From a virus: a stretch of 44,287 bases of DNA. Within the stretch, counting starts at the first letter, position 1, and every line of letters begins with the position of its first letter. The translations under genes were made by a program, and so were the position numbers. The notes beneath the pieces are model-generated. The model was not told the DNA's origin and searched no databases. It worked only from the letters and a program-made list of their open reading frames with translations. Of this stretch, positions 10,727 to 22,170 are shown one piece after another. The stretch is taken from positions 1-44,287 of IMG/VR virus record IMGVR_UViG_3300002461_000457. The stretch is one strand, 5' to 3'.

Positions 10727-12325
10727 TCAAAGCTCCGCGTCGATAAAGAATCTGCTGTTGCCGTTGGTGCTAGAGAGCGTGACGCCCTGCCCCGCAGTTC
10801 GCACGCCAGCGATCGTGACGTTAACCCTAGTCCTGTCCATGCCGATCGTCACCCCGGGGACACCAACAACGGTTGCGGCGTCGTTCGTTGTCGCGTTCTG
10901 AATCGTAAAGTCCCCAGCCGCAGAGAAGGTGATCGCGGGGCGGATTCTCTTGCGCTTGAAGGGCATGTTGATATAGGCCTGCGACGCCGTAACGAAGAAG
11001 CCGGCCCCGTACTGGTGCGTGCCGCCGTTCGGCGTGCCGAGCGTCTCGTAGAACTCCAGGCACTTCATCTCGTCCTGGTCGATCGTCTCGTCCCAGATCG
11101 GCACGTCCTGGGCGCCATCGGTGACCCCCATGCGGACGCCAGCGATCTCGAAATAGTCGTTCGGCACGGCGGCGCCCCATGTCGTCGTAAACCCAAGGGC
11201 GCATTGGCAGAACGAAGTGCCGACGGCCACCGTGTTGATTACGAACTCCTGCCACGACGTGGTGAGCGTGACGGGCTGCGCGACGTGCGTGTTGTAGCCG
11301 GTCCATAGAACCGACTCCAAAGCAGACGACGACGCCTCCTCGTCCTGGCCGAGAACCAGAGCGCACGTGATCTGGCTCGATGCGGCGGAGAAGCCAGAGC
11401 CCTTGCGAGCAAAGAACCGGATCGACAGTGCGCGGCCGGATATGAGGCGTGCGATCTTTGCCGGCAAGTTGGTCCTGAAGCGGCTGTCGGTGAAGACGGC
11501 CGTGGTGTCGCGCAAGATCCTGGCGCAGTACGGATACCTCTTCTTCTCGACCGAGCTCAGACCGCCGTCGGCAGCGGGCCCGGCCTGCTGGGAGATCGTC
11601 ATGTGTCCAGTTATGCCGCCGTTCTGGAAGGCATACCACCGCTGAAACATGTACGTGACGGCCGAGGCAACCGGGTTAGCGCTTGTGATCCCGGGCTTTT
11701 GTACGTGGTTGAACCCGCCGTTCAGAATCAAGTTTTTTGCGCCGAGAGCGGATACCCCGAGCGTCGATCTGGCGGTGCTTGCGTCGGCGTCGTCGAGCAG
11801 AGTACGAGCGTACGAGGTGACCGTCATAAGGGCGGCAACCCCAGGCGCAGTGAAGTAGGGCGCCCTATCCGCGTCCGAGGACAGAGCGGCAATGGCCGAA
11901 ATCTCTGCGTCTGCGGTGAGGTTGTAACTAAACCCCATCCATCGATTGAGCCCCTGATCGGTCGCAAAGGCTGCCGATGACGAGTGCGTCGCCATGCAGA
12001 TGTAGGTGTTGTTGGCGTTCACAACCAAGTCGAGCAGGTTGTACGTCGTCCCCGGGCCCGCCCAGTTCCCCCGCGGGGTGAGCGATGAGTTGATCAGAGC
12101 CAGGACCTCCGGGTGCAGCGTGTGCGACATGACCGTCTGGTCGCGCAGAGCCGTGTCGTCCCGCTGAATGATCGCAAGGTTGCTCAGAACCGCCGCGAGC
12201 GTGGCTTGCAGAGCGCTGAACTCGGCGTCGAGGTTGGCGGTTCGAACCGTCGACCGTCCGCTGACTCCGCCGGCCTCGTCGGTCGAGAAGTCGGTCGCAG
12301 GGGTATAGGCTGGGGGCTGCGCCAT
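10727..12325 (-). CDS. tail fibre protein (532 aa)
   Basis: The N-terminus YTPATDFSTDEAGGVSGRSTVRTANLDAEFSALQATLAAVLSNLAIIQRDDTALRDQTV is typical of phage tail-fibre anchors. It occupies the last structural position. Its start overlaps the mega-ORF stop (TAATG). Confidence 0.6.
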   Translation of the reverse strand: MAQPPAYTPATDFSTDEAGGVSGRSTVRTANLDAEFSALQATLAAVLSNLAIIQRDDTALRDQTVMSHTLHPEVLALINSSLTPRGNWAGPGTTYNLLDLVVNANNTYICMATHSSSAAFATDQGLNRWMGFSYNLTADAEISAIAALSSDADRAPYFTAPGVAALMTVTSYARTLLDDADASTARSTLGVSALGAKNLILNGGFNHVQKPGITSANPVASAVTYMFQRWYAFQNGGITGHMTISQQAGPAADGGLSSVEKKRYPYCARILRDTTAVFTDSRFRTNLPAKIARLISGRALSIRFFARKGSGFSAASSQITCALVLGQDEEASSSALESVLWTGYNTHVAQPVTLTTSWQEFVINTVAVGTSFCQCALGFTTTWGAAVPNDYFEIAGVRMGVTDGAQDVPIWDETIDQDEMKCLEFYETLGTPNGGTHQYGAGFFVTASQAYINMPFKRKRIRPAITFSAAGDFTIQNATTNDAATVVGVPGVTIGMDRTRVNVTIAGVRTAGQGVTLSSTNGNSRFFIDAEL

Positions 12326-15300
12326 TATCTTTGCTCCTGTGCATCGTTGTAGGCCTGCAGCGCTCGAGCCATGAGGGCGGCCTCGTCCCGCTGCAGTTGT
12401 CTTCGCTCTTTCGGGCGCTCGTCACGAGGCATGTTCTCGACCGCCTTGAAGCTCTTGCTGATCTCTGATTGCGCCTTCTTGAACTGCTGGCTCGAGATCT
12501 CCCGACCCATCGCTATCAGGGCAGGCTTCTCTTCCTCGACCTTGCCGGCAGCCTCGTAGTCACCGTCCTGCTGGTAGGCCTTGAGCAGCTTCAGCGCCTT
12601 CGTTGCGTCCTCGCGAAGCCGATAGTACTTCGCCGCCATGTCCCGGTCATCGACCTCTCCGTAGAACTTGCCGACGAACGGGATGCGCCTGACCGGGTAG
12701 TCCTCGGCCTCGGCCTGCCCCATGGCCCTGTCGATCGAGTGCCGCGTGAAGTCCAGCATCACCATGCCGAACTGGCCGACCCCGCCGGTGGCGGTGCGGA
12801 CAATGTGCTCGATCGTGGTCGGGGATATGTCGATTGCCCCTCCCTGACGCTCGTCGCCGCCGGTCAGATTCGAGAGCCACCTCGCGAGGTCCTTGGCAGT
12901 GTCGGACGTGGACCGGAAGAACAGCTTGTAGTCCGGCATCGGCCCAGACTGCGGCAGCGGCTCTGGCCGCATCGGGCTGCCGAAGAAGGTCTTGTTCTCG
13001 AGGTACTGAACGAACGGATCCGCGATCGTCGGCGCAACGTACTGCATCGGCGTCGACGTCTGGCCGAGCGGGACGAAGGCATCGATTAGCGTCTCGCCGA
13101 AGGCCCAGGCAAGATCGATCGGCTTGCGCCGCTCCTGCACAGCACCAGAGCCCGACGCCGCGAGAATCGCCTCCATGATCAGCCGGCCGGCGCCGAAGAA
13201 CACGTTGAACCCGTAGGCCAGCGGGATGCTGGTGTGTTTGCCGCCCGGCAGCATGAAGATCATGTTCTTTTGCTTCACGTGCTCCGGGATGAGCTCGTAG
13301 TAGCGGTTGCCCTCTGGGTCCCGGTCGTCGTCGTAGAACATCCGGTTGAACATCTCGAGAGCGGCGGCGAAGGCCATCATCATGCCAACGTACATCCGAG
13401 CCCGCGGGGACTTTGCTAGCCCCCAGATCATTCGAGCGGTCCCCTGCACCTGGGCATTGAAGAACATGTACCACGCATTGGCGGCAGTGTTCCTGTTGCC
13501 CTTGCGGTTGAAGTTCACCGTCATATTCTTGGCGATAGATGCGGCCCGCTTGTCGGACAGCCCTATCTTCTTCGCCTCGGCGAATGCAGACACCCGGATC
13601 GCGTTCTCGATCGCGCTGTTGGTGAGCTCCACGTACTCGAGCGCTTTGTGCCCGATCTCCCGCGGGTCCAGCCGGCTGCGGTTCGCCCGATCCAGCAGCT
13701 TGGCAATGTCCTCGTGCCGGTCGCGCAGGTCTTCCCAGATCTGCATCCAGCCGGTCTGTCCGCCGGCATCCTGGAATGCACGGTAGGTCTGAGCCCACTG
13801 AGAAGTGCCCTGCCCCTTCTCGGCGCTCAGAATCCCGACGATTGCCTTGGGGATGTTCGCAATGATCTGCGGCGCACGCCCCTCGAGCTCGGTCGACTGC
13901 AGGTTGATCGCCGCGGTCTGAATGTCCCGGGTCGCGTTGGTCACCCAGAACTGGGGGTTCCAGGAAGTGGCAAGGTTCGCCAGTAGTCTCGAGACACGTC
14001 CGACCGCCTTGGTCACGGCGCCCAGCTGCACGACGCCGAGGTTGTTCATGGCCCTGGAGATCGCCATCGCCCGCTCGTTGGACGGGTTGAAGGTGATCAC
14101 CCGCTCGACGACAGTCCCGTTCGGCCCCTTGTCCTTGACGATGAACACGTCGTCGCGCTGCCGGTAGAGCGGATCGACGGTCAGCTGCACGAGCCCGGTG
14201 CTGGGGTTGATCGTGCGCTTCACGGGCGGCGAGTCGACGCGCCAGAAGTCCGGGTTCGGGTTGTCTTCGGCCAGCTTGATCAGGGCCCGGCCGACCTTCG
14301 CACGCTCGGCGCGGATGATTGCCCGCTCGTGCTGGGAGATGACGGCCGCGATGATCGCGATCGCCTCCTTCTGCGAGCCCATGGCACGCTTCGACTCTGG
14401 GCCCACGACCTTGAACCCCTGGCCGGCTGAGGCCTGCTCTGCGTCCCGGAAGAGGGGCACGTAGTGCTTGTAGACGTTGTTCCAGGAGTCGATCGTGGAC
14501 TGCGCCTCGAGCCCCTCGCTGACCAGGATCTGCCGCGTGGCAGCCGTGATCGTGTCGATCATTCCGGCCAGCCGGTTCATATCGGCCAGCTTCCCGGAGC
14601 GGCGGAACCCGGCGATTATGTCTGCAGCATTCGGCGCCCCGGCGTTGCCGTCACGCGTAGCAGCGGCCGCATCGTCGTACAGGCCGGAGAGATTGGTCGG
14701 CCCGTTCGGGTTGATCTTGCTCATCTGCCGGTTGCGCTCTGGTGCGTGGCGAGCCCAGAGGAAGCGCCCCAGATCGTCGGCAGTGGTCTTGGTGTCCCGC
14801 ATCGCCTCGATGAGGGGCTCGACGTGGTTGCGAACCGCCTTGTTGACCCGAGTGCTGACGCGGCCGTGGTAAAGCTCTTCCGCGAGGTAGGTGTCGTTGT
14901 CCTCGCTGACAAGCCCGGCGGCGCGGAGCATCTCCTTCTGCACCTGCTTCACGTCGATGAACTTGTCCTGCCACTCTCGAATCAGGTTGTCGGTGAGGCC
15001 CGGCTCGTTCAGTCCCCAGGTCGGGGCTACGCTTCCTCGAGCGACTCGCCCAGGGGCTCCCGGTCCACCCGCTCGTCCACCGACAGTTCGCTGACCGGCA
15101 GGCTGCGGACCTCCTTGAGGTGGCGCTCCCACTCGGGATCCGGGCGGCCCTCTTGGAGTGCCCGGTCGATTCTGCCCTGCGCTTCGGTCGGGACCTTCCA
15201 GCCTTGCGACGCGCTTTTCAGCACTGAGGAAGGCACCTTTGTCCGAAAGCGCTTCGCGTAAGCGTTGGCTGACCTCGTCAGCGGATTGCGGGGCGCCTTC

Positions 15301-18300
15301 AGTCGTCTGCGAGTTGCCATAGATTTGCTCCAGTGTGTCAGCCCACGCCGGCATGGTTCGCCGAACCAGTATCGGGTCGATATTGTAGAGGGCCGAGACT
15401 TGGGCAAACAGTTCCAGCTGCCCCAGCCGGGGGTTCATCGCGCCACCCATGACGCTGCCCAGCGGGTACGACAGGATGCGGGCAAGGTCAGAGTCTGGCG
15501 ACGCGTTGAGCCACGCCCCATAGGCCTCGTCGAAGAGGTCACCGTTCTCGACGCCCCTTTCCGCCCAATCGAAGCGCAGCCGTGGGCTATCCATCGAGAC
15601 GGCATCGCGACCTTCGCTGGCCCCGAAGTCCACGGCATGCGAGATCTCGTGCGCCAGAGTAGTCAGGGCCTGCTTTCGCTCGACCGGGTCGTCGGAGTTC
15701 AGTCGCTCGAGCGTGTCCGATGACAGGGTAATGACCCGTTGGTCCGGGAAGAACGCGCCGTTCTGGCCGATGTGATCGCGTTGCGCGAAGGTAAGCCCTT
15801 CGATCACGTCCCTAGGCGCCAGCGTCGGGCCGAGCTCGTCGATCGCTTCCTGGACGTGCCCGAGAGCCTCGGTCGACAGGGCGACAACCTCCTTGCGGTT
15901 GCGCTCGGACTTGAACTTGAGGTCCTTACCGTCACCGGTTCGCACCGTGGCGGATGGCGTGCGGTCCTCCACAGAGCGATCGCTATCTCGAGTCCCGATG
16001 CGCTCAGTCACGGCATCCACGGCAGCGCGATCGATACGGCCGTCCATGAACCACGGCTCCGAGCGATCCGTTCGGTCCTCGTTCATGCTGATGCGGAAGT
16101 CTTTCGGGAACGTCTTCTTGACCTCGGCCAGCCACTGACGCCACTGCGCAGGGGTGAACCTGTACGTCTGTCCATTGCGGTCGTCGTACAGGAAGTACTG
16201 CCGGTTGTTCTTGTCTCGAGCGTACCGAACGCCGTAGTCTGTGCCGCCGTATTCGCCCTGCTTGACGGTTATGTCGGCGAACGGATTGGCGCGGCCCTCG
16301 ACCTCGTGCAGCAGCGCGTCAAGCGTGCCGTGCGACGCCTCCTGCCCAGACGTGACGACCCAGCTTTCCCAGTGCCACCGCCCCGGGCTGGCGTCCTGCT
16401 CGCGGCCCAGCTGCTTGTAAACGCCGGGCAGCACCCGCTGCAACTCCGCCTCGATCGTCTCGTAGAGCATCAGGCCGCGCACGCCGGAGGTCATGCTCGC
16501 CAGCCCAGACCCAGGCTTGATTGCCCGCTCGTCGATGAGGTCGCTCTTCTGGATGCCCTTCTCGCGAGAGATCCTCTGAATCTCTGCCTGCACGCGCTCG
16601 TCGAACTGAGCGCCGGTTTCGCCCTCGCGCTGCTCGAGCGTGGCGAACGTCTCCACCGACTGGAGCGACTGCTCATCGAGCAGGTTGCCGTAATCGTCGG
16701 TGATCTGGTTCGACCGCCTGCCCGTCAGCATCCCATAGTCATCGACGACCTCTGTCGTCGGCGAGGAGCGTCGGCGGATTGCCGTCTGGTACGTGCCGTC
16801 GTAAAGGTTGTAGTTCGCGAACGAGCCGTCGTCGAACACGTTCTTCATCTGCACTCGGTCGAGCACGACCACGTCGGTATGGCCGATGACCAGCATCGTG
16901 AAGCTGATCACCTTGTTGTCGATCCCGACGCCCTGCCCGATCTTGACGAACTCGCGCCGGATCTCCTTTGCGGTCATCTTCTTGTCGGAGAACATGTCGT
17001 GCAGGTACTGGAGCTTGGTCCTGCCGTCGGGCATGCGCTCCGACATGCGGGCAAGGAACAGCTTCCCGAACGCATTGAGGTTGTGCGTGGTCCCGTTCCC
17101 TGGCGCGGCGTCACCGTTGCGACGGGAGATCTCTTCCGCCCACTTGGCATACTCCGCCTGCTTGTTGGGACCGAAGTCGCCATTGGCCGAGGCCCGGACG
17201 AACGGCTCGATGCCGCGAACTGCGTCGAGGAACATCGACTCCTGCACGTAGGGGGAGACACCTCGAGAGAGGAACGACCACAGCATCAGCTTGCCAGTCG
17301 TTTCCACCGGGACCTTGCCGGCCTCGTAAAGCTCGCGGAACTCCTTGCCATTGGCGAACCCGGAGCTCGCGTCCGATATCTGGCCGGGAGTCAGCGAGCG
17401 CAGCTGCGAGACGATGCCGGCGCCATTGTTGGACAGCTGGCGAATGAGGTTGCGCGGAGCCACCGGAACGTCGTTGGACCCGAAGGCCTCGGCCTCGAAT
17501 TCCAGCCACGCACGGGCAGATGCCAGAGGCTTGGGGTGCGTCTTCTGCAGCCCGTCCAGGATGGACAACTGCTCAACGGCGTTGCCGTTGGTCGTCTTCT
17601 GCGTTATCTGGGCCTCGAGCGGGACTCGGGGCAGGCGAGATATGTCGACCTTCTCCCGCAGTCTGGGGACCAGACCGTGGCGGTTCGCGGCCTCGGCAGC
17701 CGCGACCCTAGCCTCTAGGGCCTGTCGTTGCTGCCGGGTTGCGCCGTTGACTTGCTGCCAGCGGGCGAAGTCGAAGCCGAACCCTTCTGCTTTCGCAGCG
17801 AGGATGTACGGGACAAGAAGTGCATCTGTGGCCCGCTCGAGAACTCCGGGTGATCCGGCGGCAGCATCGTCATCCCAAGTTTGGCGGACAACTCGCGTAT
17901 AGCCTTCGGTGACATTGCCATTGCTGTCCCCTTCCTGGAACGAATCGAGTACCCCGTGATTGTACGCGAAGGTCGATCCCGATAGGCCAACTTGTTTGGC
18001 CACCGAACTCAGCTTAGAGCCGTGCGCCACATACCCAGCCTCGTCACCGAAGTACAGGAACTTCAGCGACTTGCCGTCCGGGGTGAGCGAGGCATCCTCG
18101 CCGACCGCATTGAATGCCTTGAACGCACGCTGCACCTCAGCGGCCGAGAGAGGCTTGCCGTCCCCTCGCCCGAAGTACATGGCCGGCACAATGTCCTGGG
18201 CGCCCTCGTCGACCTTGGCGATCGCCTCAGAGGTAATCGCCGCGTCCTGCTGGAAGGCCGATGCGAGCATGGCCCCCAGTCCGCGGGTGCGCTTGAAGTC

Positions 18301-21300
18301 CAGGGCATTGCCGTCCTTGTCCTTCGCCGTGATGAAGAACGACAACTCCGGCACACCGCGCCACGACCCCTGGTACGTGACGATGCTCACCCCGTTGATG
18401 CCGAGGCTTTGCAGCAGGTCGCGGGCAGGCTTCGCTCGCAGGATCACCTCTGCGCGTGCGTGCAGCCTTGCGAGATCCCTGCCCTTTCGTCGGGTTACGG
18501 TGGCGAGCTCGTCGCCGGGCTTCGCCGAGGCGAGGACTGCGACGCCGCGGCGCTGCTCGTTGGCCGCCGACATGCCGACCTTCTCGTCGGCCTTCTTCTG
18601 CTCCCGCTCTGCCTGCTTCTGGGCCTTCAGAGCGTCGCGATCGGTGCGGTCCTCGAGCTCGCGATCGCCGGCGGCCTCATCGAACACTCGAGACTCGGCC
18701 GTCGGGAACACCTTCTTGAGCAGCGAGGGCTCCTTGCGGGGCAGGTCGCGGTTCTTGCCGGCGGCCTTGTTGATTGCCGCCACCTCTTCATCGGTCAGGA
18801 TCCGGGTGACGCGCATCTCGCCAGCGATGATCCACTGCCCGGTCATGTTGGCGTTGGTCTTGTACATGTAGTGGCCGCCGGCCGGGACCTGATCGTCGAT
18901 CTGCGCGGTCTTCGGGATGACGTTGCCCTTCTTGTCCCGCTTCGCCCGCTCGTTCGCGACCGACTGCCAGTCCTTGTCGGCGCCGACCTCGACCTGCGCC
19001 CAGACCTCGTTGCGCCTGCGCACCGTCGGCTTGCCGTCGGCGCCCTTGTCGGAGCCGATGTGGTGAGAGAAGGGCAGGTCGCTCGCGTGCCAGCCGGGGC
19101 GATACGCCAGCGTGCCGAGCGTCGACTTGACCCCCTTGCCCTGCCGCTCACCGGACTTCGCCTGCAGCCACACGCCCCCGTCGATCGCCTCGTTGGCGCG
19201 GACGTACAGGGGAAACGTCTTGCCTACGGCGTTGCCCTTGATTCGCAGCAGCTTGTATGCCGTGCGCGTTTTCTTGGGCGGGGTATCCATCTGGCTGAAC
19301 TCGAGGTCGTCGAGCTCTTCGAAGTCCTGATGGATCTGCGACTCCATGCCTCGGGCTGGGTAGGTCGTCTCGCGGACGTCGAAGATCTCACTGATCCGGT
19401 TGCCCTGCTTGCCCTTGCTGTAGCCCACGACCGAGTCGTAGCCGGCCTTGCGCACCTCATGGGCGACGATGTTCTCCTGCGTGGCATAGGCCAGCAGGTT
19501 GCCTTGTTGGCTGTTGCGCACGATCTCAGAGGCGAGCCCGCGGTCCGCGCCGTACTTCTCGAGCACGTCACCGATGCGCTGCACGAGCTCGGCCTGCGGC
19601 TGCGCATAGCGCCGGCTGGCACGCAGCACGTCCTCTCGCATGGCGTCGTACGCACCGGGACCCTTGATCGTGTCGTACGCAGTCTTGGGGGCCGCGCCGC
19701 CGGTAGCCCCTCGCACGAACATCGGCCGCCTCAGCAGCGTCTTGCCCTCGTGCCTCTCAGTGCCGCCGTACATGCGGTTGGATCCGCGATAGCCGACGGT
19801 CTGCGACGAGCTCGTGGGCAGGTAGAACACGCCAGTTCGAACAGACTCGGCGCCCTCCTGCTCGGGCTTCTGGAAGCGGACGGCGTCGATCTCGAGGCCG
19901 CCTTCGGTGATCGTTGCCCCGGGCGTGTTCGCGATCGCCTCGCGGAATACCGGGTCGGTCGGCAGCACCGAGGGCGTGTTCAGCCGCATGGCCTGCTCTG
20001 GGGTGACCTGATTGACCTCTCGATCCTGGCCGTCCTGCGGTTGCTGCTGGACCGTGGGCGCGGCGTTCCTTGCCGGTTGCTGCCGGCCGATGACGCGACG
20101 AAGGGACGCCGTGATCGCGTTGTTGTCGTCCTGGCGACCCTCAATCACCTCGGTCGGGCGGATGCGCTGCTCTCGGCTCGAGGCGACCTGATCTGGCGAC
20201 GGCAGGGCTGCGGTCGGGGTAGCGGACTCGACAGTGTCGCCTGCGAACTTCCCGCGCTTCCTCCCCTGCACGATCATCGGCGTGCCGTTGTCCTTGAACT
20301 CGGGGCTGATGGTCGGCAGGGACTCGCCCTGCTTCGGCTGGATGGCGGCGACAGCCTCCTTGATCCCGGCAAGCAGCTGCTCTTCGGGCGACATGGGCCC
20401 CTGCTGGGCGCGGAACTCCGGGTTGATCGCCGGCAGGCCGGGCTCGCCCATGGTCTTGGCGGCCGACTCGAGGGCTGCAGCCGCTCGAGCCTCCGGGTTG
20501 ACGATCTCCGGGTCTGGCAGGAAGGGCTGATTGATCGCAGGCGGGGACGCTGGCGGGGCAGGTTGAGCCGCGGCCAGGATCTCGCGCACCCGGCTGAGGG
20601 CCTGATCCTCTGGACTCATAAGGTCGCCCGGGAGTACCGGTGGTGTCCCTTCCGCCCCAGGGAGGAAAGGCGGTCGGGGTACGGTTCCCGGGCGAGCCTG
20701 TGGAACCGGGCGCATACCTGCAGAGGTAATGCCCGGATCGAATGTCTCGGAGTCGCTGAGTAACTGTCGTGCGAGGTCGGTGATCGTGTTCGCCTGTCCC
20801 AGCTGCGTGGGATCCATGCGACGGTCGACGCCGATGCGTTGCGAGATGCCGGCGCCGGCCTGCATTCCGCCGGAGACGATCGCGCCCATGGCGGCAGCAC
20901 CCGCCACTCGCTCGAGCATCTGCTTGGGCGTCATGCCGTTCTCGAGGCCCAGAAGCATGCGGTTCTCGATCTGGCCGAGCTCGGTGAGGCCCTCGCCCAG
21001 GGACTCGCCCAGCAGCGCCTTGACGCGTTGCGTGAGGGCCTCCCCGGTCATTCCCCGGGTCTTCATGGCCTTGATCGTTTCGCCGAAGCCGATCTGCTCT
21101 CCCAGGAATTCCCAGAATGCATCGGAGGCCGCCAGCTGCACGCGCTCGAGCGTCGGCAGGTTCGCGTACTTCGGGTCGTTGTACGTGCCGGCGCCCGAGA
21201 AGATCGACATGGCCATCGTCGGGGCCTTGGTAACCGCGAAGGATTCCATCGCGGCCGCCACCTGCGTGGGCGTTACGGCATTTTTCAGCGGACCCAGGCC

Positions 21301-22170
21301 GGCCCAGTAGAACGGGGCATTGGCGACGATGTTGGCGACCGCCTCCTGCGCAACGCCACCGATGCCGGTCAGCGGCTTGATGTTGGCGCCGAAGAGCTCG
21401 CGCTCCCTGCGGCTGCCGGCGAAGTAGTCAGATGCGGAATCCCAGCCGACCAGATCTGCAAAGGCCTTGGCGAAGCCCTCGCCACCTTGGTACAGCTGCT
21501 CGACGCCCTGCACTGCGCCTCGAGCTAGGGGCGCCAGCACCGCGCCAGCACCCGGCCGGCCACCCCTGGCGACCATCAGGTTGCCGTTCACGTCCACCAC
21601 GGGCGCAGGATCGCCACCGCCAATAGACGCGGCAGCCTGCCTGACAGCCTCGCTAGTGCGTCCGAGCGCCGTCGACGGGGCACTGGGGGGCGCAACCTGA
21701 GTACGCGCAAAGCCGGCGTCCTGGAGCAGCTTGCGGCGGGCGTATTCCGCAGGGCTGAGAGTGACCCCTGGAACGAGCCTCGACTCTGGCCCCGGAGCGG
21801 GCATCGTCGGTGACGACGGGACGGGCGTGCCGTCCATACCGGCCATGACGGATTGCGGCTTCGGCGGGGTGATCCCGACGGCCCGCTCGATCACGTTCGG
21901 CTGCGACGGCGCCGGCAGGCCCCAGACCTGTCGGGCTACGGCCATGCCCGGCTGCATGATCGCAGGCGCCTTGGAAATCGCGTCAGAGGCTGCCTGCGGC
22001 AAGCGCTCGGCGACCGCCTCCTTCATGGTCGTGACGACGCGCCGCACTGTGTCCATGAACGACGGCTCTGGGCGCTTCGGCGCACCCTCTGCCTCGAGCG
22101 GCACAAAGCCCCGCCGGGGAGTGTCCTCGACGTCGGTGTCCTGCGATTCTGCGAGAGGGACGAAAGGCAT
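12325..22170 (-). CDS. giant multi-domain virion / ejection (polyvalent-type) protein, 3,281 codons as one open frame
   Basis: Uninterrupted ORF in the T7 gp15/gp16 position. HEISH zincin motif at 15637-15651. Hydrophobic segments lie in the C-terminal third. Caveat: the coding signal leaves this frame at about 15215-15027 (see findings). Confidence 0.7.
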   Translation of the reverse strand: MPFVPLAESQDTDVEDTPRRGFVPLEAEGAPKRPEPSFMDTVRRVVTTMKEAVAERLPQAASDAISKAPAIMQPGMAVARQVWGLPAPSQPNVIERAVGITPPKPQSVMAGMDGTPVPSSPTMPAPGPESRLVPGVTLSPAEYARRKLLQDAGFARTQVAPPSAPSTALGRTSEAVRQAAASIGGGDPAPVVDVNGNLMVARGGRPGAGAVLAPLARGAVQGVEQLYQGGEGFAKAFADLVGWDSASDYFAGSRRERELFGANIKPLTGIGGVAQEAVANIVANAPFYWAGLGPLKNAVTPTQVAAAMESFAVTKAPTMAMSIFSGAGTYNDPKYANLPTLERVQLAASDAFWEFLGEQIGFGETIKAMKTRGMTGEALTQRVKALLGESLGEGLTELGQIENRMLLGLENGMTPKQMLERVAGAAAMGAIVSGGMQAGAGISQRIGVDRRMDPTQLGQANTITDLARQLLSDSETFDPGITSAGMRPVPQARPGTVPRPPFLPGAEGTPPVLPGDLMSPEDQALSRVREILAAAQPAPPASPPAINQPFLPDPEIVNPEARAAAALESAAKTMGEPGLPAINPEFRAQQGPMSPEEQLLAGIKEAVAAIQPKQGESLPTISPEFKDNGTPMIVQGRKRGKFAGDTVESATPTAALPSPDQVASSREQRIRPTEVIEGRQDDNNAITASLRRVIGRQQPARNAAPTVQQQPQDGQDREVNQVTPEQAMRLNTPSVLPTDPVFREAIANTPGATITEGGLEIDAVRFQKPEQEGAESVRTGVFYLPTSSSQTVGYRGSNRMYGGTERHEGKTLLRRPMFVRGATGGAAPKTAYDTIKGPGAYDAMREDVLRASRRYAQPQAELVQRIGDVLEKYGADRGLASEIVRNSQQGNLLAYATQENIVAHEVRKAGYDSVVGYSKGKQGNRISEIFDVRETTYPARGMESQIHQDFEELDDLEFSQMDTPPKKTRTAYKLLRIKGNAVGKTFPLYVRANEAIDGGVWLQAKSGERQGKGVKSTLGTLAYRPGWHASDLPFSHHIGSDKGADGKPTVRRRNEVWAQVEVGADKDWQSVANERAKRDKKGNVIPKTAQIDDQVPAGGHYMYKTNANMTGQWIIAGEMRVTRILTDEEVAAINKAAGKNRDLPRKEPSLLKKVFPTAESRVFDEAAGDRELEDRTDRDALKAQKQAEREQKKADEKVGMSAANEQRRGVAVLASAKPGDELATVTRRKGRDLARLHARAEVILRAKPARDLLQSLGINGVSIVTYQGSWRGVPELSFFITAKDKDGNALDFKRTRGLGAMLASAFQQDAAITSEAIAKVDEGAQDIVPAMYFGRGDGKPLSAAEVQRAFKAFNAVGEDASLTPDGKSLKFLYFGDEAGYVAHGSKLSSVAKQVGLSGSTFAYNHGVLDSFQEGDSNGNVTEGYTRVVRQTWDDDAAAGSPGVLERATDALLVPYILAAKAEGFGFDFARWQQVNGATRQQRQALEARVAAAEAANRHGLVPRLREKVDISRLPRVPLEAQITQKTTNGNAVEQLSILDGLQKTHPKPLASARAWLEFEAEAFGSNDVPVAPRNLIRQLSNNGAGIVSQLRSLTPGQISDASSGFANGKEFRELYEAGKVPVETTGKLMLWSFLSRGVSPYVQESMFLDAVRGIEPFVRASANGDFGPNKQAEYAKWAEEISRRNGDAAPGNGTTHNLNAFGKLFLARMSERMPDGRTKLQYLHDMFSDKKMTAKEIRREFVKIGQGVGIDNKVISFTMLVIGHTDVVVLDRVQMKNVFDDGSFANYNLYDGTYQTAIRRRSSPTTEVVDDYGMLTGRRSNQITDDYGNLLDEQSLQSVETFATLEQREGETGAQFDERVQAEIQRISREKGIQKSDLIDERAIKPGSGLASMTSGVRGLMLYETIEAELQRVLPGVYKQLGREQDASPGRWHWESWVVTSGQEASHGTLDALLHEVEGRANPFADITVKQGEYGGTDYGVRYARDKNNRQYFLYDDRNGQTYRFTPAQWRQWLAEVKKTFPKDFRISMNEDRTDRSEPWFMDGRIDRAAVDAVTERIGTRDSDRSVEDRTPSATVRTGDGKDLKFKSERNRKEVVALSTEALGHVQEAIDELGPTLAPRDVIEGLTFAQRDHIGQNGAFFPDQRVITLSSDTLERLNSDDPVERKQALTTLAHEISHAVDFGASEGRDAVSMDSPRLRFDWAERGVENGDLFDEAYGAWLNASPDSDLARILSYPLGSVMGGAMNPRLGQLELFAQVSALYNIDPILVRRTMPAWADTLEQIYGNSQTTEGAPQSADEVSQRLREALSDKGAFLSAEKRVARLEGPDRSAGQNRPGTPRGPPGSRVGAPPQGGPQPAGQRTVGGRAGGPGAPGRVARGSVAPTWGLNEPGLTDNLIREWQDKFIDVKQVQKEMLRAAGLVSEDNDTYLAEELYHGRVSTRVNKAVRNHVEPLIEAMRDTKTTADDLGRFLWARHAPERNRQMSKINPNGPTNLSGLYDDAAAATRDGNAGAPNAADIIAGFRRSGKLADMNRLAGMIDTITAATRQILVSEGLEAQSTIDSWNNVYKHYVPLFRDAEQASAGQGFKVVGPESKRAMGSQKEAIAIIAAVISQHERAIIRAERAKVGRALIKLAEDNPNPDFWRVDSPPVKRTINPSTGLVQLTVDPLYRQRDDVFIVKDKGPNGTVVERVITFNPSNERAMAISRAMNNLGVVQLGAVTKAVGRVSRLLANLATSWNPQFWVTNATRDIQTAAINLQSTELEGRAPQIIANIPKAIVGILSAEKGQGTSQWAQTYRAFQDAGGQTGWMQIWEDLRDRHEDIAKLLDRANRSRLDPREIGHKALEYVELTNSAIENAIRVSAFAEAKKIGLSDKRAASIAKNMTVNFNRKGNRNTAANAWYMFFNAQVQGTARMIWGLAKSPRARMYVGMMMAFAAALEMFNRMFYDDDRDPEGNRYYELIPEHVKQKNMIFMLPGGKHTSIPLAYGFNVFFGAGRLIMEAILAASGSGAVQERRKPIDLAWAFGETLIDAFVPLGQTSTPMQYVAPTIADPFVQYLENKTFFGSPMRPEPLPQSGPMPDYKLFFRSTSDTAKDLARWLSNLTGGDERQGGAIDISPTTIEHIVRTATGGVGQFGMVMLDFTRHSIDRAMGQAEAEDYPVRRIPFVGKFYGEVDDRDMAAKYYRLREDATKALKLLKAYQQDGDYEAAGKVEEEKPALIAMGREISSQQFKKAQSEISKSFKAVENMPRDERPKERRQLQRDEAALMARALQAYNDAQEQR

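Follow-up and report, generated by a model that had tools for sequence, protein, structure and literature searches.

A 97-codon gene probably nested in the +1 frame of a giant phage polyvalent-protein gene

Analysis of the window (the whole 44,287-nucleotide stretch of IMG/VR virus record IMGVR_UViG_3300002461_000457) suggests that the minus-strand segment 15320-15027 is probably a bona fide 97-codon gene that occupies the +1 frame within a giant gene for a phage-type polyvalent protein. The small ORF lies on the same strand as, and wholly inside, the giant ORF 22170-12325 and is complete from start (ATG, 15320-15318) to stop (TAG, 15029-15027); its predicted product is MATRRRLKAPRNPLTRSANAYAKRFRTKVPSSVLKSASQGWKVPTEAQGRIDRALQEGRPDPEWERHLKEVRSLPVSELSVDERVDREPLGESLEEA, which includes peptides such as IDRALQEGRPDPEWER. 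The original prediction, made from the window alone, had noticed that the coding signal jumps to the +1 frame and runs into a stop within the giant ORF, and had offered three readings: two compensating frameshifts (real or from assembly), a pair of genes linked by a frameshift, or programmed recoding. Its core inference, that the +1 frame carries real coding information up to the TAG, is supported by conservation, dN/dS and GC-phase analysis. An apparent "frameshift" in a giant ORF thus need not mean error or recoding. In the genomes of tailed phages, nested genes on the same strand are rarely found with strong evolutionary support, and gene callers reject them systematically. The embedded gene is a clean case that is conserved in many lineages and in which the two frames are separable by selection.

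The giant polyvalent-protein gene

The giant ORF (12325-22170, minus strand) encodes 3,281 amino acids in a single frame that is unbroken from the ATG to the stop codon, and it is surrounded on the same strand by genes for the terminase, virion structural proteins and a tail fibre. An LPD38 domain (Pfam) is found at residues 2958-3166 (E=7e-38); this domain is reportedly confined to polyvalent proteins of the phage type (Iyer et al., 2017, PMC5512222). With an LPD-family domain in a multidomain giant that is encoded among virion and late genes, the giant ORF belongs to the phage-type large polyvalent proteins.

The C-terminal module (12325-15021, minus strand; homologues P0001-P0005) begins with TWGLNEPGLTDNLIREWQD, has a conserved N-terminus of the form W..NEPG and includes LPD38 at 13299-12673. 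The C-terminal ~900 residues of the giant protein are homologous to the C-terminal part of a 2,806-aa protein of phage 933W and to a giant protein of a Bacillus phage, and tblastn matches in phages start precisely at the first residues of the module.

A putative metallopeptidase domain of the zincin-like type (15316-15900, minus strand; residues ~2090-2300) with an HExxH motif, HEISH at 15651-15637, directly precedes the embedded gene and overlaps with its start. In an alignment of six lineages, H84, E85, H88 and D91 of this domain are invariant. Comparison with Pfam yields weak matches to Peptidase_M90 and M48 (best E=2e-4, to Peptidase_M90, for one member), comparison with the PDB yields the zincin-like protease 3e11 at E=0.22, and a word-index protein search with the domain as query gave no match. 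The putative assignment as a zincin-like peptidase domain is not significant on its own. Zincin-like MPTase domains have been proposed to process the polyprotein in large polyvalent proteins (PMC5512222).

Codon signal across the frame jump

From about 15230 to 15027 on the minus strand, the long ORF loses the codon signature of the genome and the +1 frame acquires it, which confirms the original observation. From position 15215, the +1 frame reads SASQGWKVPTEAQGRIDRALQEGRPDPEWERHLKEVRSLPVSELSVDERVDREPLGESLEEA and ends at the TAG, whereas the long frame over the same region reads ...GPDRSAGQNRPGTPRGPPGSRVGAPPQGGPQPAGQRTVGGRAGGPGAPGRVARGSVAP. On recount, 54 of the 62 +1-frame codons end in G or C (30 in G, 24 in C), and 34 of 64 long-frame codons (32 of 58 if counted over the quoted peptide) end in A or T, against the earlier count of 33 of 63. 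The GC3 of the long frame here (0.47, compared to 0.83 for the whole giant ORF) is the lowest among 108 sliding windows of 60 codons, with the next dips at 0.58-0.60, and no other alternative-frame stretch that stays open for 70 codons or more in the giant ORF has as large a GC3 excess over the long frame as the +1 stretch. The other GC3 dips of the giant ORF (21720-21630, 20820-20640 and 18030-17850) show no protein-like alternative frame.

GC-phase analysis places the onset of the +1 signal at the ATG at 15320, and five lineages show a change of the GC1/GC2/GC3 signature to the +1 frame starting near this codon. Composition alone is a confounded argument because a long frame rich in Pro, Gly, Arg and Ala raises the "+1 GC3" by construction. 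The case for +1 coding rests on comparative evidence rather than on composition.

Conservation of the two-frame layout

Among divergent metagenomic relatives, both frames are kept, with the long frame open and the +1 ORF intact, in eight lineages including the window itself (WIN, L006, L009, L010, L012, L036, L043 and L044), and a ninth, partial sequence (L005) is consistent with the same layout. In all eight lineages the +1 ORF stops near the start of the C-terminal module, and the small proteins share identity down to ~30%. The closest comparison is with L006, an independent assembly that is 81% identical to the window at the DNA level and has the same two-frame layout; the sole indel between the two is 21 nt long and none is found at the upstream junction. 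For six lineages, the chance that the long frame contains no stop over the length of the small ORF is ~2e-4 and the corresponding chance for the +1 frame is ~4e-8, values that assume independent lineages and overstate the significance because the lineages are related.

These observations bear directly on two of the original readings. Taken alone, the window looks as it would if two compensating indels, real or introduced by assembly, had scrambled ~60 residues of the giant protein. However, L006 and seven further lineages contradict this reading: independent assemblies from different samples display the identical frame structure without indels, and the +1 peptide is in frame with the giant ORF in no relative, so that a double frameshift or assembly error is effectively excluded.

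Similarly, the giant ORF might consist of two genes, the first ending within or close to the +1 segment and the C-terminal module being produced on its own, after reinitiation or from a non-canonical start codon. Gene callers split several relatives in this way (L003, L043, L044), a free-standing version of the module of ~1,000 aa is encoded on a 19.7-kb contig (P0005), and the module frame of L004 is interrupted by a stop 30 codons upstream. The last observation is discounted because this stop lies within the first ~35 nt of the contig, at the contig end, the only part in which L004 departs from the near-identical L012. Against a separate module, the long frame is without a stop in all eight lineages and the module is fused in one ORF both in 933W and in Bacillus phage Dartukuta. 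Nor is there a canonical start near the W..NEPG terminus: the earliest one in the long frame past the TAG is, as had been stated, a GTG 23 codons downstream, and the TTG of L003 corresponds to CTC in the window. We consider two separate genes very improbable, and the original version of this reading, in which the first gene reaches the TAG through a frameshift, fails on the same two grounds, the open long frame in every lineage and the fused module of 933W. A conserved programmed -1 frameshift joining two ORFs, a candidate derived from L003, L004 and L005, was rejected as well, given that longer relatives show a continuous long frame upstream.

The distribution of the small ORF follows the upstream domain. 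Embedded copies always come after the same HExxH zincin-like domain, whichever domain comes next: in L036 the small ORF follows this domain and precedes a different downstream domain, whereas in L011, where another domain precedes the same downstream module, there is no small ORF.

Start site and the recoding alternative

The ATG is conserved in all full-length copies of the small gene. It is preceded in the window, at a distance of 7 nt, by a Shine-Dalgarno-like GGAG (15328-15331, minus strand), a motif style common to other genes of the window, and 11 of 12 copies have GGAG, GAGG, GGAGG or AAGGA 5-8 nt ahead of the ATG. The conservation of this motif is not independent evidence because it overlaps conserved long-frame codons (Leu/Met-Glu), of which it may be in part a by-product. 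A promoter and terminator scan of 14900-15700 gave no match.

Independent initiation at the embedded ATG, to which these features point, has to be weighed against programmed +1 ribosomal frameshifting near 15320-15215, which would yield a truncated product of ~2,380 aa with a structured C-terminal tail beside the full-length protein. Frameshifting would account for a +1 frame that is under selection and has a conserved stop at its end; moreover, the window has 38 open +1-frame codons before the ATG, as well as an A4 run (GAAAAG, 15214-15219), which the original prediction took for the probable upstream junction. The run is there but does not have this role, given that the coding signal starts ~100 nt upstream of it: both the conservation of the +1 frame and its codon signature begin at the ATG and not at the A4 run, which itself is not conserved (L006 has CTCAAGAAC in its place), and no conserved slippery motif is seen among the lineages. 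In L009, L010, L036 and L044, the +1 frame contains a stop 3-4 codons before the ATG, so that a slip could occur only in a tiny interval or after the ATG. Free-standing homologues, in addition, share the starting Met. Programmed frameshifting is accordingly an unlikely explanation. What stands of the recoding proposal is +1 coding up to the TAG; recoding itself is not needed by a frame that has its own conserved ATG, a Shine-Dalgarno-like motif and, in four lineages, stops upstream.

Selection on the two frames

Because deeper comparisons are saturated, dN/dS was estimated for WIN, L006 and L032 only, that is, for one close pair and one relic. A position-specific divergence test on five deep lineages was affected by saturation and GC3 bias and was replaced by per-lineage GC-phase analysis together with dN/dS in the close set. 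Over the whole embedded ORF, dN/dS of the +1 frame is 0.21-0.42. In codons 31-90, which overlap the linker of the giant protein, the +1 frame shows values of 0.22-0.48 and the long frame values of 1.05-2.1, compared to 0.15-0.43 for the long frame in the flanks and 0.38-0.43 once the C-terminal module is reached. Within the linker, 14 of the 23 substitutions between WIN and L006 fall on position 1 of long-frame codons.

Two parts of the overlap can thus be distinguished. The first ~30 codons of the small gene (15231-15320, minus strand; long frame ...IYGNSQTTEGAPQSADEVSQRLREALSDKGA) cover the conserved C-terminal helix of the upstream domain and, judging by dN/dS of ~0.3-0.4 in both frames (WIN compared with L006 or L032), are a dual-coding stretch constrained in both frames. 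The motifs EARxRLRxALQ of the long frame and AYxKRFKTKVP of the +1 frame are both kept here across lineages, and the GC-phase values are intermediate. The remainder encodes a linker of ~70 aa in the giant protein (15022-15230, minus strand) that consists of Pro, Gly, Arg and Ala for 71% and appears to be a passenger: as judged from dN/dS and from a GC-phase flip in five lineages, purifying selection acts there on the +1 frame and not on the long frame, so that the linker sequence is dictated by the +1 gene. Most of the overlap is under selection for the small protein, which explains why its long-frame reading resembles an off-frame translation. Alignment with homologues, which had been proposed as a way of telling the frames apart, identifies the +1 frame as the conserved one across the linker. 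Superficially, homologues also keep the Pro/Gly/Arg-rich peptide of the long frame, in the form of the motif GAPRGPPG, which had been considered a sign of long-frame constraint. Analysis of the substitutions indicates, however, that this motif is a by-product of selection on RALQEGRPDPEWE in the +1 frame.

The same data address the possibility that the +1 signal is historical, a free-standing small gene having been swallowed by read-through fusion of its neighbors and being now silent. The existence of free-standing family members and the composition of the linker, which is as expected of a young, overprinted frame, agree with such a history. Silence, in contrast, is at odds with the purifying selection that persists in the +1 frame of WIN, L006 and L032 and with the ATG, stop and intact ORF that are retained in the eight lineages in spite of their divergence; a dead frame would have gained stops, for which the background rate is 0.023-0.045 per codon. 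We regard a silent fossil as improbable.

The small-protein family

The product of the nested gene defines an uncharacterized family of ~90 aa, with a characteristic "PEWE" motif and without a Pfam or PHROG entry. An hmmsearch recovers 23 cluster representatives, most of them 72-152 aa long and aligning from residue 1. Two motifs, AYxKRFKTKVP and ALxEGRPxPEWE, mark the family, in which Y, P and W do not vary and F, L, G and P hardly do. The members include free-standing genes without an overlapping open frame, as in L040 (P0010), where the gene is preceded by a Shine-Dalgarno sequence AAGGAGG. In L041 (P0015) the domain lies within a 519-aa protein, and in L027 (P0009) a relic of the long frame is interrupted by a stop.

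An AlphaFold2 model of the small protein, built from only five sequences, consists of five helices (pLDDT 76, pTM 0.58). In Foldseek searches of PDB and BFVD with this model, no hit reached E<1, and comparison of the small protein with Pfam and PHROGs produced noise only. Among INPHARED phages, neither blastn with the region nor tblastn with the small protein and P0020 gave a match, that is, no cultured phage in this collection carries the gene; two scans of genome contigs likewise gave no match.

Predicted expression and function

In the scenario we favor, ribosomes translating the giant ORF would stay in the long frame throughout and produce the Pro/Gly/Arg/Ala-rich linker, probably disordered, that would join the HExxH zincin-like domain to the LPD38-containing C-terminal module. 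Other ribosomes would initiate internally on the same late mRNA, at GGAG-N7-ATG (15331-15318), and yield a separate small helical protein that terminates at TAG 15029-15027. Internal initiation inside a heavily translated ORF may be inefficient.

The small gene is located directly 3' of the HExxH domain and co-varies with it and not with the downstream domain, an arrangement expected of an immunity or inhibitor gene that is paired with an effector domain, as in polymorphic toxins. As embedded copies of the gene are invariably found with this zincin-like domain, our tentative guess is that their product is a partner, chaperone or inhibitor of the domain; the embedded protein suggests a regulatory partner for peptidase domains that are thought to process polyvalent proteins.

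A more elaborate scenario, which we consider doubtful when taken as a whole, combines these elements. The small protein would be a dedicated, cis-encoded inhibitor or chaperone of the adjacent zincin-like processing peptidase; its embedding in the linker would ensure co-expression with the peptidase domain, and it would prevent cleavage of the polyvalent protein until packaging or injection. The gene would have been captured repeatedly, by bacteria and by small integrative elements, as "orphan immunity" against incoming phages, the free-standing copies and relics in L027, L032/L033, L037 and L041 being the candidate captures. As a corollary, the giant gene might have been made by read-through fusion of two genes across the pre-existing small gene, with the linker arising by overprinting. 

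The linker may exemplify how protein sequence is created when an older gene comes to be read in a second frame. As to annotation, two CDS features are indicated here rather than a corrected or split giant gene.

Comparison with known systems

A close parallel is provided by the spanin genes of phage lambda, in which Rz1 is nested in the +1 frame of Rz. Both cases involve a small gene, complete and with a start codon of its own, that is read out of frame on the strand of a larger phage gene which contains it entirely; a single late mRNA presumably serves for the two products. At the sequence level, several features of this type of nesting are found here, namely a start with a ribosome-binding-site-like motif, purifying selection on the +1 frame and an open host frame. 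Rz1-type o-spanins have a signal peptidase II lipobox with a Cys and are Pro-rich lipoproteins when mature. The 97-aa product has no Cys, lipobox, signal sequence or hydrophobic N-terminus and, because the first three are absent, is not a spanin. Furthermore, the host is a 3,281-aa polyvalent protein of the injected type rather than a 150-aa lysis protein, and over the overlap the host frame is mostly an unconstrained linker rather than a functional domain.

Programmed frameshift products are known from the tail chaperone G/GT, from T7 10A/10B and from dnaX tau/gamma. These resemble the present case in having a second frame under selection and a stop inside or beside the longer frame. Here, however, there is no conserved slippery site, stops lie just upstream of the ATG in four lineages, and free-standing homologues start at the embedded ATG.

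As in the large polyvalent proteins described previously (PMC5512222), the host gene is giant and multidomain, with LPD38 and an HExxH domain. That paper uses neither of the words "frameshift" and "overlapping" and has no description of an embedded gene linked to the MPTase-like domain.

Finally, overprinted overlapping genes of viruses have been reviewed (PMC8227390, PMC3494269). In the usual asymmetry of an ancestral and a novel frame, one frame has genome-typical codons and a foldable product, and the other has an odd composition and a probably disordered product. The same asymmetry is seen between the two frames here. Compared to this pattern, the roles appear to be reversed: the small embedded frame looks older because its family has free-standing members, and the linker of the host would be the newcomer.

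Giant ORF and its composition anomaly

The minus-strand ORF at positions 22170-12325 encodes a giant protein of 3,281 aa with a match to Pfam LPD38 (E=7e-38) close to its C-terminus and is located among terminase, virion and tail-fibre genes. This domain and this location make the product a 'large polyvalent protein' of the phage type as defined by Iyer et al. (2017; PMC5512222). The next gene (10727-12325, minus strand, tail-fibre-like) begins with an ATG that overlaps the stop codon of the ORF by one nucleotide at 12325; the metagenomic relative L003 has the same overlap (2834), an arrangement that suggests translational coupling of the two genes.

In a sliding scan, GC3 in the frame of the giant ORF (long frame) has its deepest dip of the whole ORF, to 0.47-0.55, around 15240-15060, where GC3 of the +1 frame climbs to 0.83. 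A recount reproduced the translations and codon counts behind the original prediction of a jump of the coding signal into the +1 frame: the third base is G/C in 54 of 62 codons of the +1 frame and A/T in about half of those of the long frame in the dip (compared with a GC3 of 0.83 over the whole giant ORF), a TAG is located at 15029-15027, and the next canonical long-frame start past it is a GTG 23 codons on. The long-frame peptide is 71% Pro/Gly/Arg/Ala, a composition that pushes the +1 GC3 up by construction, so that composition by itself cannot settle the coding frame. The +1 frame of this GC-rich ORF also stays open for more than 100 codons at other places, and thus openness in a single genome means little.

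A second long-frame dip (18030-17850, minus strand; GC3 about 0.58-0.60) overlaps a 97-codon open +1 stretch (18008-17715), with a GC3 of 0.70 in the alternative frame vs 0.61. The long-frame peptide is protein-like there and the +1 peptide is not; rather than being a second nested gene, the segment may have been acquired recently. Two linkers in the giant protein that are rich in Pro/Ala/Gly (20820-20640 and 21720-21630, minus strand), with mildly reduced GC3 (0.60-0.72) and no protein-like alternative frame, are internal controls in which low complexity alone comes without a drop to 0.47.

Conservation of both frames in relatives

Homologues exist for the C-terminal module of the giant protein, which begins with TWGLNEPG... 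at 15021. In three short contigs (L003, L004 and L005), the upstream ORF stops just before or overlapping the module, and the module is in the -1 frame relative to this ORF. Peptides of the upstream ORF (GRPNPEWESEL..., GQPVPEWEKEL...) and the +1 peptide of the window (GRPDPEWERHL...) are homologous. A conserved -1 frameshift, suspected from these contigs, was discarded in the light of longer relatives with a continuous long frame. In all seven of these (L006, L009, L010, L012, L036, L043 and L044), the long frame is uninterrupted through a Pro/Gly/Arg/Ala-rich stretch containing xGAPRGPPG, and the +1 frame contains an intact ORF that begins with a conserved ATG and stops close to where the module starts. 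Two separate genes, the first reaching the TAG through a frameshift and the second starting non-canonically, are very unlikely. L004 is nearly identical to L012 at the junction except for its first ~35 nt (L004:1-35 vs L012:7730-7770), which interrupt the module frame with a stop; this divergence is probably a contig-end artefact.

Assuming independent lineages, the chance that the +1 frame is open here in six of them is about 4e-8, and that the long frame is open across the small ORF about 2e-4, so both frames are maintained. The window and L006, the modules of which are 74% identical, align with zero indels across the upstream junction, the sole indel being of 21 nt; a private compensated frameshift or an assembly error, as envisaged in the original prediction, is therefore practically excluded. 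L006, the closest relative, also contains a 13-codon tandem in-frame duplication (REWQDRFIDVKRV twice; L006:10040-10125) at the very start of the module, which could be real or an assembly artefact.

Start of the embedded ORF

In the window, the +1 ORF encodes 97 aa between its own ATG and the TAG (15320-15027, minus strand). GGAG precedes the ATG with a 7-nt spacer. Of 12 copies, 11 have an equivalent purine motif 5-8 nt before the ATG; the motif is similar to the sites used by other genes of the window, and it overlaps conserved long-frame Leu/Met-Glu codons. Programmed +1 frameshifting that yields a truncated product is unlikely, because +1 stops located 3-4 codons ahead of the ATG in L009, L010, L036 and L044 leave almost no room for a frameshift from the long frame, and the A4 run proposed as the probable frame junction is not conserved. 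Judging from these sequence features, the small ORF appears to be a gene with its own start, and this reading replaces the frameshift interpretation. Most probably, it is a nested out-of-frame gene: ribosomes would initiate internally to produce a separate small protein, and translation of the giant ORF would continue in the long frame, with the overlap region serving as a floppy linker.

Selection on the two frames

Between the window and L006 (15183-15052), 14 of 23 substitutions are at long-frame codon position 1 (position 3 of the +1 frame); the numbers of synonymous and non-synonymous changes are 9 and 9 for the +1 frame but 2 and 16 for the long frame. Nei-Gojobori dN/dS, computed on the window, L006 and L032, is 0.22-0.48 in the +1 frame and 1.05-2.1 in the long frame for small-ORF codons 31-90, ~0.3-0.4 and ~0.3, respectively, for codons 1-30 (two pairs including the window), and 0.15-0.43 for the long frame in flanking sequence. 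That the ORF is an unexpressed fossil of an absorbed gene is, in our assessment, quite unlikely. The simple codon-position test is saturated at deeper divergence and gives no signal to read. Analysed one by one, five lineages have a GC1/GC2/GC3 phase of the long-frame type over 200 codons on each side and of the +1-frame type between approximately the ATG and the stop.

The small-protein family

Searching 1.8 billion cluster representatives with a profile identified 23 family members, most of 72-152 aa and aligning from residue 1, with the motifs AYxKRFKTKVP, ALxEGRPxPEWE and AERSLQQxID and invariant Tyr, Pro and Trp. Some come from lower-GC genomes. The small protein has no match in Pfam, PHROG, PDB or BFVD, and no copy of the gene was found in INPHARED cultured phages. 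An AlphaFold2 model based on only five sequences contains five helices (pLDDT 76).

Several members lie outside giant genes. P0010 (L040) is free-standing, with an AAGGAGG site in front and an overlapping frame full of stops; P0015 (L041) has the domain mid-way in a 519-aa protein adjoining HTH repressor and DUF5681 genes; and P0009 (L027) is within a small integrase island of a betaproteobacterial MAG, where a long-frame relic (PPKWAEILERIYGSN) is interrupted by a stop. In L037 and L032/L033, short relics remain, with the giant gene lost and the small ORF intact. Together with the composition asymmetry, the existence of free-standing relatives suggests that the small gene may have come first and that the linker may have arisen by overprinting.

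Three of the longer members (P0009, P0019 and P0020; 124-152 aa; genomic context examined for P0009) possess an extra C-terminal helix motif (PPxELxxFxK...L...L) that embedded copies lack. Free-standing members recur in small integrative elements (L027:3132-11000; L041:700-3800) whose other genes encode a tyrosine integrase, an AAA_25 protein, DUF5681 and, in divergent orientation, an HTH_3 repressor; this context may point to involvement in element-host or element-phage conflict. A SUKH/SMI1_KNR4 immunity-family gene (L037:6151-6627) located ~3 kb from the relic small gene lends weak circumstantial support to an immunity-island context.

Link to a zincin-like domain

Every embedded copy follows the same domain, which has an invariant HExxH...D signature (HEISH at 15651-15637 in the window) and weak similarity to zincin peptidases. 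L036 retains this domain and the small ORF followed by a different downstream domain, and in L011 the LPD38 module follows a different domain and there is no +1 ORF; thus, the small gene is tied to the zincin-like domain and not to the module. In other relatives (L011:9500-10000; P0004 N-terminus; L016:8450-8940), another domain precedes the LPD38 module; it ends with ...TQIKSATGNxGxF and is followed by a short ordinary linker, an arrangement that demonstrates modular shuffling upstream of the module.

Zincin-like peptidases of this sort have been proposed to process polyvalent proteins (Iyer et al., PMC5512222); the words 'frameshift' and 'overlapping' are absent from that article. Because the small gene is tied to a peptidase-like domain and is repeatedly retained alone in bacterial chromosomes and islands, we infer that its product might be a partner or inhibitor, possibly similar to 'orphan immunity' proteins.

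Our literature search found no description of the gene family, its polyvalent-protein host, its tie to the zincin-like domain or the passenger-linker arrangement. The locus should be annotated with two minus-strand CDS features, one at 22170-12325 and the other at 15320-15027. Rz1 within Rz is the textbook case of a nested gene, and the small gene inside the giant gene represents an architecture of the same known kind.
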